DNA of 64,000 nucleotides from Candidatus Bathyarchaeota archaeon (lineage in GTDB: Archaea; Thermoproteota; Bathyarchaeia; Bathyarchaeales; Bathycorpusculaceae), in NCBI GenBank assembly GCA_963717465.1, contig OY970340.1, positions 2,496,001-2,560,000 on the forward strand. Reading direction: 5' to 3'. Shown piece by piece: positions 441 to 59,524 of this stretch. The notes under the pieces were generated by a model. That model saw nothing but the letters and a program-made list of their open reading frames with translations, had not been told where the DNA came from and did no database searches. A program made the translations under genes and the position numbers. Within the stretch, counting starts at the first letter, position 1. Every line of letters starts with the position of its first letter.

Positions 441-649
441 TATTTTCTCTCCTATTTAACGAATACAAATTTTGATATATGTGGTCTAGTTGATATTAAG
501 CTAGATTATAAGCCAATTTTAGATTTTGCGACAAAAAAGGACATTTCAGTAAATAACATCGACATTATTGCAGAACAAATATTTCTCCTAACACAATGTT
601 GACCTCACACTTTTTTAATTACTAATGCAGCGTAAAAGCAGAATTAAAA

Positions 650-870
650 ATAACGAAGGCATCCTAGCGGGCAATGGCACAGACAATTCAGTGAGCATTA
701 CTTTCTCATAGCCTACAGGTGGCTAGAGAAAAGGGGATTGAGCTTCTCTATAGCCACCATCTAAAGGTGAACAGGTTACTTGTTTGACATCCCCATCCCT
801 GTCATAGCAGAATTCGACCATCAGGCGAATTTTCCTGCTCAGGTTTACCCACTTTAAGTTCCCGTTTTAT
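650..870. ncRNA. Candidate structured non-coding RNA or cis-regulatory leader
   Basis: GC-richer island in an AT-rich intergenic region with several nested inverted repeats and complementary loops (see findings). No ORF over 60 aa. Confidence 0.45.
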
Positions 871-1088: not shown

Positions 1089-1697
1089 ATGAGCCAATTT
1101 TTTAAAAGGCAAGATACCTCAGACATGAAAGTACCTGTAAACTTGAAAGTCCTATTTGCCCTTCTGGCGTTAGGTGGTAAAAGCGACAGGGAGATTGCTA
1201 AAAAACTAGGTATAAACAATTCGACATTATCTAGAAGAAGAAAGAAGCTTGAAGAAGAGGGTTACATAAAAGAGTATACATTATTGCCCGATTTCCACAA
1301 AATGGGGCTTGATATTATCGTTTTTTCATCCTGCTCAACTTCTGATGTGGTACCGACAGAAAATTCTAAGTATGTTCAAGAATTAGTCAATAAAATTCCC
1401 GAAATGCTGTGTCTTTTTGAAGACCATGATGTAGCGGGAACAAACTGGTTTGCCGTAACTGTACATAGGAATTATGATGAATTTGTAGAATTATACAAAA
1501 ATGTTATGGACGAAATAACATCCATGCATTTACATGTGCCACGTGTAGAATCGAAACGCCTCGTATTTCATACGAACAAACTGTATCCAAAACCTTTCTC
1601 ACTGCGACAATTGAATGTTATATTTCAAAACAAGAGAAGTTTTGAGCAACCTCAGCGCAGGAAGCATGACACTAAAATAACAACTGCTGATGCCTAA
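1089..1697 (+). CDS. Lrp/AsnC family transcriptional regulator
   Basis: N-terminal HTH SDREIAKKLGINNSTLSRRRKKLEEEGYIKEYT, followed by a PD..K.G linker. Confidence 0.85.
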   Translation: MSQFFKRQDTSDMKVPVNLKVLFALLALGGKSDREIAKKLGINNSTLSRRRKKLEEEGYIKEYTLLPDFHKMGLDIIVFSSCSTSDVVPTENSKYVQELVNKIPEMLCLFEDHDVAGTNWFAVTVHRNYDEFVELYKNVMDEITSMHLHVPRVESKRLVFHTNKLYPKPFSLRQLNVIFQNKRSFEQPQRRKHDTKITTADA

Positions 1698-9037: not shown

Positions 9038-11164
9038 CTACTCCATGAATTTTTCAGGCGCTGGTACATCAGAAGAGAGGCCTTTACTTTTTCGCAAGTT
9101 ATTGATTATTTGCAATTCAAGTTTTTGCGGCATTGTATCCCAGTGATCAAAAAACATTTGCCAGAAAGCTCTCCCCGAAGTAGCTGACCTTAAGTCTGCG
9201 CTTAAACCAAAAGTTTCAGAAACAGGAATAAAACCGGATAAAACTGTTAGCATCCCCTTCTGCTCAAAAGACAACACTTTTCCGCGTCTTCTACTCATTA
9301 TTTTTGAACATTCTCCAGCTAATTCAGTTGTCACTGAAAGCACAATCTTGTAAATTGGCTCAAGCAAAACAGGCTTAGCAGTTAAAAAGGAGCCAAATAT
9401 TGCCTTGCCAACGCCGCGCATAACCTCCACAGAACCTCTCAATCCTTCATCATTGCTGACCTGCAAGTCAACCAGGCTCACCTTTACATGCCTAACAGGT
9501 TCACCGCATAATGGACCTGCATGACAAGCAAACTCAAAACCTGCGATAATAGATTCCAACACTTCTTCGCTTAACGATTCGGTAATACCTTTACTATCGA
9601 CAAGCACGTTACGTCTCTCATCAAACGATAAAATATTTCCGCCAGTCCCACCAGCCCGTTTTGTCGTTTTGGTTTGTTCTTCATCTTCAGGTTCAACTTG
9701 TATCCAGAAACTATTTTGTTTATTGGGGCTTTTAGCGTGGGCAACAACACCTTTGCTTCTGACACTTTCACGGTAAACAACTTTTGGCGAAGAAGCCACA
9801 ACATCAACTCGGAATTCGCTTTTTAACTGGTTAATAGCGATCTCCAAATGCAACTCGCCCATGCCGCTAAGCAGATATTCACCTGTTTCTCGGTTCACCG
9901 TAACAGCTAAGTTAGGATCTGCAGCGGACAAGTTTTCCATTCCGCCGAGCAAAACCTCCAAATTTTTAGGATTTTTAGGCTCAACTGCCATGGTAACTAC
10001 AGGCTCCGAAACGTAGCTTATGCCTTCAAAAGGAACCATTCCTGATTTATGATCTAAATCAACAAGAGTCTCCCCAGCCTTCACGCAACCCGACAAAGTC
10101 AAAACCACCAAATTGCCAGCTGAAACCCCAGCAACCTCTTCCCGGAAAGATCCCATATTAATCGCGACTTGATTCACCGTTGCCTCCGCTATTGCATCGA
10201 CAAGATGCAAAACATTTCCTTTCTTTACTTTCCCACAGAATAATCTGCCCAGCGCAAGACAGCCACCGTTTGAATCCGACTGCACGTTTGTTACACACAT
10301 GACTGTTGGGTCTTCATCCTGGCATGCAGTTAAGGCGTGACCAATTTCCGAGTCAACGTTTCCATCCCAAATTTTTGGTATTCTATAAGCTTGAGCTTCA
10401 CGTGGATCCGGAAGGCTCTTGATAGCGATTTCGAAGACCGCATCGTAAACAGGAAGCAGACTTTGCAGTTTAGTCTGCTGTGAATTCAAATAAGAGTTTA
10501 TTATATTTTCGAATTTGATGCTTTTCTCTTTTGCAATATTAGCGGTGAAGCCCCAACCGTGCAGCGCTGAACCATAAGCTACGTTGCTGTATGATGAGTC
10601 AATTTTCCACTTACTCTTAAAATCAGTTTCACAGTACAATTCGATAAGATCATTGAATCCGTTAACGATAAGTTTCAGTTTTTGTTTGATTTGCTGTTCA
10701 GTTAATTGCAATTCCGTGATTAACCGATCAACCTTATTTATGAATAATACTGGACGCACGCGTTCCTCAAGTGCTTGTCGCATGACAATTTCAGTTTGAG
10801 CCATGATTCCTTCGACTGCGTCAACAACAACTATAGCCCCATCAATAGCTCTTAGTGCACGTGTGACTTTACCAGTAAAATCCACATGTCCAGGCGTATC
10901 AACCAAATTTATTATGTGTTGATTGTAGAGTAATGTTATGTTTGCGGTTTTTATCGTGATTTTTCTTTTCTGCTCTTCCTCAAGATAATCTAGCACTCGT
11001 GCAGAACCAGCCATTTTAGGCGAAAGTAACCCCGCACCAGCCAATAATGAATCAGCAAGCGTTGTTTTTCCATGGTCAATGTGAGCGATTATTCCAACGT
11101 TTCGAATAGACTCTTTTTTATTCATTAATTGTTGAATTTGACTGATATGTCTAAACCTTGGCAT
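9038..11164 (-). CDS. Elongation factor 2 paralog (aEF-2p-like)
   Basis: AHIDHGKTT, DTPGHVDF, NKVD, GMGELHLE, KSPNK and LRSATSG motifs. The diphthamide loop is altered (SNDEGLRGSVE). Likely start is MPRFRH at 11164. Confidence 0.9.
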   Translation of the reverse strand: MPRFRHISQIQQLMNKKESIRNVGIIAHIDHGKTTLADSLLAGAGLLSPKMAGSARVLDYLEEEQKRKITIKTANITLLYNQHIINLVDTPGHVDFTGKVTRALRAIDGAIVVVDAVEGIMAQTEIVMRQALEERVRPVLFINKVDRLITELQLTEQQIKQKLKLIVNGFNDLIELYCETDFKSKWKIDSSYSNVAYGSALHGWGFTANIAKEKSIKFENIINSYLNSQQTKLQSLLPVYDAVFEIAIKSLPDPREAQAYRIPKIWDGNVDSEIGHALTACQDEDPTVMCVTNVQSDSNGGCLALGRLFCGKVKKGNVLHLVDAIAEATVNQVAINMGSFREEVAGVSAGNLVVLTLSGCVKAGETLVDLDHKSGMVPFEGISYVSEPVVTMAVEPKNPKNLEVLLGGMENLSAADPNLAVTVNRETGEYLLSGMGELHLEIAINQLKSEFRVDVVASSPKVVYRESVRSKGVVAHAKSPNKQNSFWIQVEPEDEEQTKTTKRAGGTGGNILSFDERRNVLVDSKGITESLSEEVLESIIAGFEFACHAGPLCGEPVRHVKVSLVDLQVSNDEGLRGSVEVMRGVGKAIFGSFLTAKPVLLEPIYKIVLSVTTELAGECSKIMSRRRGKVLSFEQKGMLTVLSGFIPVSETFGLSADLRSATSGRAFWQMFFDHWDTMPQKLELQIINNLRKSKGLSSDVPAPEKFME

Positions 11165-11269
11165 GGTAACCCTTTTAGAGTAGATTTTATGTTGAACCAG
11201 ACTTCCTATTAAACCTTGAAAGCTTATATTTTTAACCTTCGAATTTAGTAAACGCACGAAGGATACGTT

Positions 11270-28850: not shown

Positions 28851-29015
28851 TGGTGCCGTTCGTCCAAACAGACGCTAATTCTGCTTGTGGGACGGGATTC
28901 GAGCCCGCGACCTCTGGCTTTAGGCGTTTAGCCCCTTTAGTCTCCAGATTTCTCATCTGGGTTTGTCCTACCAGATTATGAGTCTGGCGCCCTGGCCAGG
29001 CTAGGCTACCCCGGC
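28851..29015 (-). tRNA. Elongator tRNA-Met(CAT) with three introns (28950-28976, 28912-28941, 28859-28888)
   Basis: Removing the three BHB-flanked inserts gives GCCGGGG TA GCCT AGCCTGGCCA GGGC G CCAGA CTCATAA TCTGG AGGTC GCGGG CTCGAAT CCCGT CCCCGGC A CCA, a complete cloverleaf. Confidence 0.9.
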
Positions 29016-58847: not shown

Positions 58848-58924
58848 TGGAGCCTCGGGCGGGATTTGGACCCGCGACCATTACCTTACCAAGGTAACGC
58901 CCCACCGGGCTAGGCTACCGAGGC
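58848..58924 (-). tRNA. tRNA-Thr(GGT), copy 1
   Basis: GCCTCGG TA GCCT AGCCCGGTG GGGC G TTACC TTGGTAA GGTAA TGGTC GCGGG TCCAAAT CCCGC CCGAGGC T CCA. Confidence 0.92.
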
Positions 58925-59447: not shown

Positions 59448-59524
59448 TGGAGCCTCGGGCGGGATTTGGACCCGCGACCATTACCTTACCAAGGTAACGC
59501 CCCACCGGGCTAGGCTACCGAGGC
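59448..59524 (-). tRNA. tRNA-Thr(GGT), copy 2
   Basis: Identical to copy 1. Confidence 0.92.

Follow-up and report, generated by a model that had tools for sequence, protein, structure and literature searches.

Between a molybdopterin oxidoreductase gene on the minus strand and a divergent winged-helix regulator gene on the plus strand lies an intergenic element, at positions 650-870 of the window (the whole stretch of 64,000 nucleotides analysed here). A first-pass annotation had proposed that it is a novel structured RNA with alternative hairpins, either a riboswitch-like leader of the Mo enzyme or a stand-alone RNA, and had left its strand open. The locus thus raises the question of which strand is transcribed, whether the transcript belongs to the Mo/W-enzyme gene, and what it might do in the cell.

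The host genome is a single contig of 3.05 Mb that is 88% complete. The oxidoreductase gene, whose 5' part occupies 3-440 on the minus strand and reaches past the window start, carries PF04879 and PF00384, with PF00384 and PF01568 in its downstream part, and is preceded by an SD-like AGGAGAG (453-447). Its frame contains an in-frame TGA 11 nt before the window start (genome 2495990-2495988). An in-frame TGA, then 6 nt, then a CCCACG...CGTGGG hairpin were found in four of four Mo paralogues checked, including those at 124642, 1211628 and 2799134; the element itself bears no likeness to this in-gene hairpin, and a SECIS-like role for it was rejected. The regulator gene (1089-1697, plus strand; PF13412 and PF01047) has 25 BLAST matches in the genome, many of them adjoining the paralogous clusters described below.

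As the first-pass annotation had supposed, the element matches no known Rfam family (none on 650-870 at E<=10). A search of 430-1100 at E<=10 returned two chance matches, both outside the element, and at the gathering score the whole window yields tRNA matches only. The window holds two identical tRNA-Thr(GGT) genes exactly 600 nt apart (58848-58924 and 59448-59524, minus strand) and a 123-nt Rfam tRNA match at 28889-29011 (minus strand), missed by ARAGORN and likely an intron-containing tRNA. A 739-aa translation-factor-like GTPase, which we take from its motifs to be EF-2-like, is encoded at 9038-11257 (plus strand), directly after a DNA-glycosylase-like ORF.

Strand, promoter and fold of the predicted RNA

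The strand is the minus strand. A promoter position weight matrix, trained on nine sibling copies with the window copy withheld, gives a total score of 47.8 on this strand against -0.4 on the plus strand, where no promoter of the class is found at the element. The minus-strand site at 897-890 ranks ninth of 1043 candidates, and the maximum in a background of 150 random upstream windows is 16.7. A plus-strand transcript was accordingly rejected for want of a promoter of the class; a sigma-70 scan is meaningless for an archaeon. Both the minus-strand box TTTAAATA (898-891) and the T-run (650-646) pointed out earlier are present. The promoter comprises upstream box A TGCAATAATGT (961-971, part score 12.2), upstream box B TTTTGTTGCAAAAA (922-935, part score 15.8), which is likely a regulator site, and the TATA box TTAAATAT (890-897). 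Archaeal TATA spacing places the predicted start of the RNA near 870.

Promoter, U-tract and homology together delimit a predicted RNA of about 227 nt (644-870, minus strand), a long form of the family. It begins with a copy-specific 5' extension (773-870), which contains a hairpin at 839-806 (P 0.88) and the segment GGGAUGGGGAU (799-789), able to pair with the family loop. There follow a conserved linker (759-773) with UUCACCU at 771-765, recognized by family comparison, and the family core hairpin (718-758), with the stem GGUGGCUAUAG/CUAGCCACC, a 2-nt bulge in this stem 1 and a variable C/U-rich loop at 743-731. Three-way alignment with two long siblings identifies a decayed second hairpin at 670-717, in which the duplicated 5' arm GGCUAUGAGAAA (713-702) invades the first hairpin and the 3' arm (~682-670) is degenerate; the homology was judged by eye, and the local alignment scores were matched by 376/500 and 474/500 shuffles. 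The second hairpins of both other long copies are intact. A U-rich tract (641-653) is the probable 3' end. An independent DNA contig agrees letter for letter with 759-909, while 644-758 is covered by no contig; three siblings checked in DNA contigs of the sequencing runs were not covered.

Checked against the sequence, every pairing of the first-pass annotation is present: the 13-bp helix 718-730/744-758 and its 11-bp competitor 702-713/721-731, the 7-bp helix 766-772/843-849 (one of its pairs is G-T on the plus strand and hence an A-C mismatch on the minus strand), the hairpin arms 785-789/800-804 and 806-816/826-839, the complementarity of GGGGAT (733-738) to ATCCCC (789-794), and ends able to pair (652-655/863-866). 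Their assembly into one structure is not supported, with P=0.00 on both strands for the multibranch closure and for the 785-804 hairpin, and the multibranch domain combined with the core hairpin lies 9.2 kcal/mol above the ensemble. Likewise, the supposed kissing loop GGGGAU/AUCCCC forms an ordinary nested helix instead (P=0.82), and a kiss within the drawn loops would be limited to 5 bp, a count taken from the sequence, since the energies are those of nested folds with pseudoknot energy outside the model.

Pairing probabilities for the minus strand at 37 C give the alternative helix P=0.84 and the core hairpin P=0.09 (0.14 in the comparison with the siblings), the core-hairpin state lying 4.0 kcal/mol above the ensemble. 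Two mutually exclusive folds therefore do exist, as had been claimed, but they are peculiar to the window copy, with nine of nine siblings single-fold. Transcripts ending at 718-710 are predicted to fold the family hairpin and longer ones to refold. The folding of the whole region is modestly better than shuffles (z = -1.85 on the plus and -1.96 on the minus strand, with 6/200 and 5/200 shuffles as good), but 4 of 45 random intergenic windows of the genome also reach z <= -1.85. The 773-718 core, on the other hand, is clearly above chance, as shown by its ten occurrences in the genome, each following a promoter of one class.

A sibling family and its regulon

Paralogues of 773-718 within the same genome were first revealed by BLAST and nhmmer. 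A pattern scan returned 25 matches, of which ten were kept by eye for hairpin and promoter. A covariance model, R1, was restricted to five short copies, as MAFFT on seven copies had misplaced the long loops; its ten best of 13 matches are the same ten copies, five of which are its training sequences, and the remaining three are antisense readings. The window copy, outside the training set, is matched at genome 2496709-2496796 with an E of 0.007, and the two other long copies reach only 0.13-0.14. A truncated eleventh copy was found behind a promoter at genome 2,987,174; it lies at about 2987200-2987270 (plus strand), lacks the 3' arm, and is the leader of a CrtC-like gene. Two further observations concern the surroundings of the copies: a near-identical promoter region occurs twice, 348 nt apart (genome 2796856 and 2796508), in front of a family RNA in one case and of the CrtC-like gene in the other, and a different promoter-driven, GC-rich hairpin RNA stands between two family members (genome 126080-126010, minus strand).

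Short copies are 74-130 nt long, with a 5' CGCG hairpin (reduced in one) and a linker containing UUCACC (UUAACC in one). Their long stem, GGURGUGGCUAYAGG / CCURUAGCCACY, encloses a C/U-rich loop whose length and sequence differ from copy to copy. Three long copies, including the one in the window, carry unrelated extensions in place of the 5' hairpin and add a second hairpin whose 5' arm repeats that of the first. The core hairpin forms with P=1.0 in all nine siblings despite the differing loops, and the stem sequence itself is conserved, with 9 of 15 pairs invariant. Among five siblings, 97% of stem cells are paired and one pair is changed on both sides; this covariation is not significant, as 58/500 and 62/500 shuffle controls score as high. 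The linker and 5' arm of the window copy are identical to those of the sibling at 1217099 at 32 of 34 nt, and its upper stem differs in sequence from the siblings and still pairs. It is likely that the element encodes a sibling small RNA of a real, lineage-specific family whose mechanistic kind is known.

Each of the ten copies is preceded, in the same orientation, by a promoter of one class, made up of TTAAATAT and the two upstream boxes. The top 50 sites of the promoter model are mostly situated before genes of paralogous clusters, whose products include Mo/W enzymes, MttB-like and MtmB-like methyltransferases, corrinoid proteins, flavoproteins, dehydrogenases and small SCP2-like proteins. 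About 45 promoters of this three-part class drive a regulon of many such clusters, which hold 10 Mo enzymes, 8 MttB-like, 6 MtmB-like and 7 corrinoid proteins, and the regulator encoded at 1089-1697 is a candidate controller of the class. The SCP2 label is a lead only, given an atlas score of 0.92, PF02036 on 25% of the cluster and no Pfam match. Several regulon genes are split in two frames (for example 1218043/1218510, 1222194/1222864, 2797283/2798694 and 2172305/2172537), which reflects either assembly indels or real decay.

Outside this genome the RNA was found neither in 119 congeneric genomes, whether by exact pattern or by model R1 (0/119 each), nor in viral contigs (0 matches). Metagenome contigs gave five pattern matches, all without the hairpin, and none by R1, and searching the DNA of 60 relatives turned up two weak matches, 29 and 25 nt long. 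Cross-species covariation is impossible because homologues are absent from the genomes searched. Searches for close relatives of the proteins of these clusters were likewise negative. The Mo-enzyme N-terminus has no match in 119 congeners at E<=1e-30, the MttB-like protein has none in 400 genomes of the class at E<=1e-100, and the best longer database match of the cluster proteins is 53%. Relatives of the regulator occur at 32-35% identity, without the RNA; the only named ones belong to the class Bathyarchaeia, of which the host is probably a member.

Complementarity to start regions and competing explanations

The 3' tail of the 16S rRNA reads GGAUCACCUCCU, and UCACCU is common to this tail and the linker. 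The three commonest hexamers before called gene starts are GGTGAA, AGGTGA and AGGAGA, to which the linker and many family loops are complementary; the starts come from a simple caller that favours SD-bearing starts, some of which are wrong. The reading that we favour, at roughly even confidence, is that the element is a trans-acting sibling sRNA that masks Shine-Dalgarno sequences. A stand-alone RNA would be transcribed on the minus strand, starting at about 870 and ending at about 645, from a promoter presumably activated along with those of the Mo/W-enzyme, methyltransferase, corrinoid and SCP2-like clusters, and would repress translation over the SD regions of other mRNAs. It would fold the family hairpin first, after which the linker UUCACCU and the loop AAUCCCCUUUUCUC may pair with the start regions of SCP2-like and mtmB-like genes. 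Later, the duplicated arm would refold the full-length RNA and bury both seeds, which might limit its activity or be plain decay. The family, its promoter class and the complementarity are observed; expression, targets and repression are predicted.

Candidate targets were sought by duplex energy, with 18 segments (6 linkers and 12 loops) compared with about 3,020 start regions and with a regulon set of 57 genes fixed beforehand. The best partner of the window loop is an SCP2-like fusion gene (genome 2,158,994-2,159,776), with which it forms 14 contiguous base pairs over -23 to -10. The C-terminal half of this gene has 69% identity to the SCP2-like gene in the cluster next to the element (leader at genome 2,493,753); it lies outside the 57 genes and joined the family set afterwards. 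Its duplex energy of -27.2 is inside the range of best matches of shuffled loops (mean -24.3, best -28.2), and none of the 57 predefined genes is among the top 60 of this loop. The window linker has as its second-best partner an mtmB-like gene (genome 2,172,537-2,173,670), which is one of the genes split into two frames (2172305/2172537) and ranks 1, 2 and 2 for the linkers of the three long copies, a match inflated by the fact that linker and mtmB-like leader are both near-palindromes (TCACC-N4-GGTG). Of 22 shuffled loop segments one had a family gene as its best partner, and of 18 shuffled linker segments none had one among its best two.

A shift towards regulon genes relative to SD-matched genes was found for the window loop (p=0.0006) and, at p<0.001, for 4 of 12 loops including it, with a fifth at p=0.03; the paralogues are not independent, so these p-values overstate the significance. 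At p<0.05 the shift is absent in 7 of 12 loops and in all six linkers. The sibling loop at 1217497 places 14 regulon genes in its top 60 against 1.1 expected. Co-folding of the core of the window copy places 7 regulon-family genes in the top 60, where about 1.2 are expected, and ranks the two candidate targets 15 and 185, under unrelated genes. With the full-length RNA, an accessibility-aware scan showed no regulon enrichment (p=0.25; candidates at ranks 46 and 312), and in co-folding run on the 250 best core matches plus the two candidates, neither candidate was bound through the seed. Opening the seeds of the window copy costs 3.3 kcal/mol for the linker and 2.7 for the loop, compared with 0.0-2.1 for the loops of the nine siblings.

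The two candidate targets lie 14 kb apart (genome 2,159,776 and 2,173,670), and both are paralogues of regulon genes without a regulon promoter (scores 2.0 and 8.0). Because its best partners are of this kind, the RNA is suggested to hold down iso-enzymes subject to a different control.

The best-surviving alternative, which we regard as unlikely though deserving of real weight, is that the family is genuine and the window member a functionless, decaying copy, its bulge, lost arm and misfold being mutations or assembly indels and its 'switch' without meaning. The alternative fold likely stems from the duplicated, partly decayed hairpin: with stem 1 bulged and no intact partner arm left in hairpin 2, the duplicated arm can invade hairpin 1. 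An assembly indel behind the bulge, or behind the short TATA described below, is possible because several regulon genes are split by frameshifts, a trait that itself suits decay. Decay would also account for this being the sole copy of ten with a non-dominant core hairpin (0.14 versus 1.0), for the second hairpin aligning no better than shuffles, and for a whole-RNA z of -1.86 on the sense strand, the weakest of the ten (others -2.7 to -7.7). Shuffled extensions, moreover, mask the seeds as well as the 5' extension does (20 and 6 of 40), and the idea that the extension is a designed lock was rejected on this ground. A decaying copy would, on the other hand, be hard to reconcile with an intact, high-scoring promoter, the near-identity of linker and 5' arm to the sibling at 1217099, an upper stem that has changed in sequence and kept its pairing, and a loop and linker that both still have a regulon-family gene among their two best partners; the exact agreement of 759-909 with the independent contig speaks against it for that part.

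A cis-acting leader, the other half of the original proposal, appears improbable. Here transcription from the promoter at 897 would continue past the U-tract into the Mo/W-enzyme operon, to an extent set by the two folds in response to Moco/Wco, a metal or a protein. Such an attenuator would fit with two folds that exclude each other and differ by 4.0 kcal/mol, the family hairpin being the first to form, and the family member at 1217980 and the truncated copy near 2987200 do sit directly before genes. Between the RNA and the Mo gene, however, stand not only the U-tract but also a second regulon-type promoter (490-572, minus strand; total 28.6 against the background maximum of 16.7), 59 nt before the ATG, with box A at 562-572, box B at 524-538 and the TATA at 493-499. 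Both of its boxes are strong (12.1 and 17.8), and its TATA, one base short of the consensus, scores -1.3. The own TATA boxes of the two RNA-preceded Mo genes (-1.3 and 3.5) are weak compared with those of six RNA-less paralogues (8-18), so read-through may occur, but two of the eight RNA-less paralogues also have a weak TATA.

The family RNA lies within 1 kb upstream of only 2 of 10 Mo-gene paralogues, and for eight occurrences of its conserved part the 1 kb downstream contains no Mo gene. The 5' extension (870-773), which would have to be the aptamer, is unique: nhmmer finds no further copy in the genome (best other E 3.3), and it does not resemble the extensions of two siblings (258/500 and 219/500 shuffles score as high), one of which is the sole other family RNA situated upstream of a Mo gene. 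That sibling, at the equivalent position, is single-fold, and the SD of the Mo gene, about 200 nt away, is untouched by either fold. RF01055 (Moco/Wco) has no match at E<=10 across the genome. A Moco riboswitch is therefore unlikely, because the Mo gene has its own promoter and only 2 of 10 paralogues carry the RNA. An archaeal Moco riboswitch would have mattered more, but this claim is unsupported; of the two alternatives first offered, the stand-alone RNA is the one that gains support.

It is quite improbable that the constant stem is the active part, as a protein-binding or ribosome-decoy RNA, or that the element is a non-transcribed repeat or mobile-element end, the start-region matches being by-products of C/U-rich loops. 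Such readings would explain why stem sequence is conserved beyond pairing and why target enrichment is absent for most segments, and would account for the GTTGTC[A/T]A motif behind several copies; the genome also has two Lsm genes. They sit badly with ten of ten copies co-oriented behind one promoter class and with the enrichment of the sibling loop at 1217497. As for mobile elements, the sole IS200 element of the genome has unrelated ends, and TnpB and IS110 have no match in the genome (88% complete). An IS200/IS605 or MITE end was rejected, since the sole Y1 transposase gene has different terminal hairpins (compared by eye); the short IS200-type element consists of the transposase only, with GC-rich terminal hairpins. 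A DNA operator reading of TCACC-N-GGTG is also unlikely, the spacer being 2 nt in three copies and 4 nt elsewhere.

There is a very small probability that the RNA has a dual function, with a translated 5' extension of 16 codons, or 34 by selenocysteine read-through at UGA, so that ribosome movement, and with it selenium supply, would decide fold and seed exposure. The extension does contain two open frames on the minus strand, GTG 852-802 (16 codons, ending in TGA) and ATG 805-776 (9 codons). In the three long copies the frame to the conserved TGG CTA TAG is free of TAA and TAG from the predicted RNA start onwards and has exactly one TGA, with a chance per copy of 0.07, 0.43 and 0.30 (product 0.009, for a frame chosen post hoc). 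Two tRNA-Sec matches exceed the Rfam cut-off (genome 845693-845779 and 2829638-2829725), and the Mo enzymes of the regulon have a TGA in frame. The CCCACG...CGTGGG hairpin that comes after the TGA in the four Mo genes checked is, however, missing behind all three TGAs of the long copies, the peptides share nothing beyond the conserved RNA core, the lengths to TGA are 16, 2-3 and 29 codons, and short copies are too small for such a frame. Equally doubtful is a modular archaeal sRNA system, of one constant stem with interchangeable anti-SD loops, in which the window copy would be a selenium-set two-state member, active in the fold made first in transcription and then self-silenced by arm exchange, the translation of the UGA mini-frame setting the balance and selenium supply deciding the repression of non-regulon iso-enzymes.

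Comparison with known regulatory RNAs

Few archaeal sRNAs have known targets. A ten-member family grown with one metabolic regulon in a single lineage would show sRNA specificity evolving by loop change on a fixed stem, and it supplies RNA-target pairs that can be tested in Methanosarcina or in vitro. In the literature covered, which takes in few subscription papers, this family is undescribed, and neither an archaeal sibling anti-SD family nor work on sRNAs of Bathyarchaeia was found.

The Moco/Wco RNA has a P1-P5 architecture with a GNRA tetraloop and receptor (PMC2408646). Similar to RF01055 as described there, the element lies upstream of a molybdopterin enzyme gene, has several stems and a similar size, and belongs to a kind of RNA for which many copies per genome are possible (PMC2408646). 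Unlike RF01055, as far as that account goes, it has no model match, no hairpin loop in its predicted folds that is a GNRA tetraloop (judged from folds only) and no conserved aptamer, and the Mo gene has its own promoter.

Closer parallels are found in Methanosarcina mazei. There, sRNA162 masks the ribosome binding site (RBS) by a single-stranded linker and is linked to methylamine metabolism (PMC3510493), while loop 2 of sRNA154 holds anti-RBS sequences (PMC5867862). The window RNA would resemble sRNA162, sRNA154 and sRNA41, as presented in these reports, in being an intergenic archaeal RNA that masks the RBS by linker or loop (PMC3510493, PMC5867862). In those accounts the M. mazei sRNAs are single each, in contrast to ten siblings built on one constant stem with interchangeable loops, and have been shown experimentally, whereas the window RNA is predicted and has no Rfam match.

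As a family, the copies recall LhrC1-5, Rli22 and Rli33-1 of Listeria monocytogenes, described as multicopy siblings of 105-121 nt in tandem clusters (PMC8079631), which are induced by the shared regulator LisRK and block translation by pairing with the RBS (PMC8079631). The window RNA is a member of neither the M. mazei sRNAs nor LhrC, and neither LhrC nor any other Rfam sRNA family matches the locus at E<=10. Like LhrC in that account, it has several homologous intergenic copies (ten plus a truncated one) with a shared promoter class (PMC8079631), and its LhrC-like promoter of its own (47.8) and 3' end before the next gene (U-tract, 653-641) are predicted features. In contrast to the bacterial LhrC siblings, as portrayed there, its loops vary between copies, and long forms occur with a duplicated hairpin and a private 5' extension.
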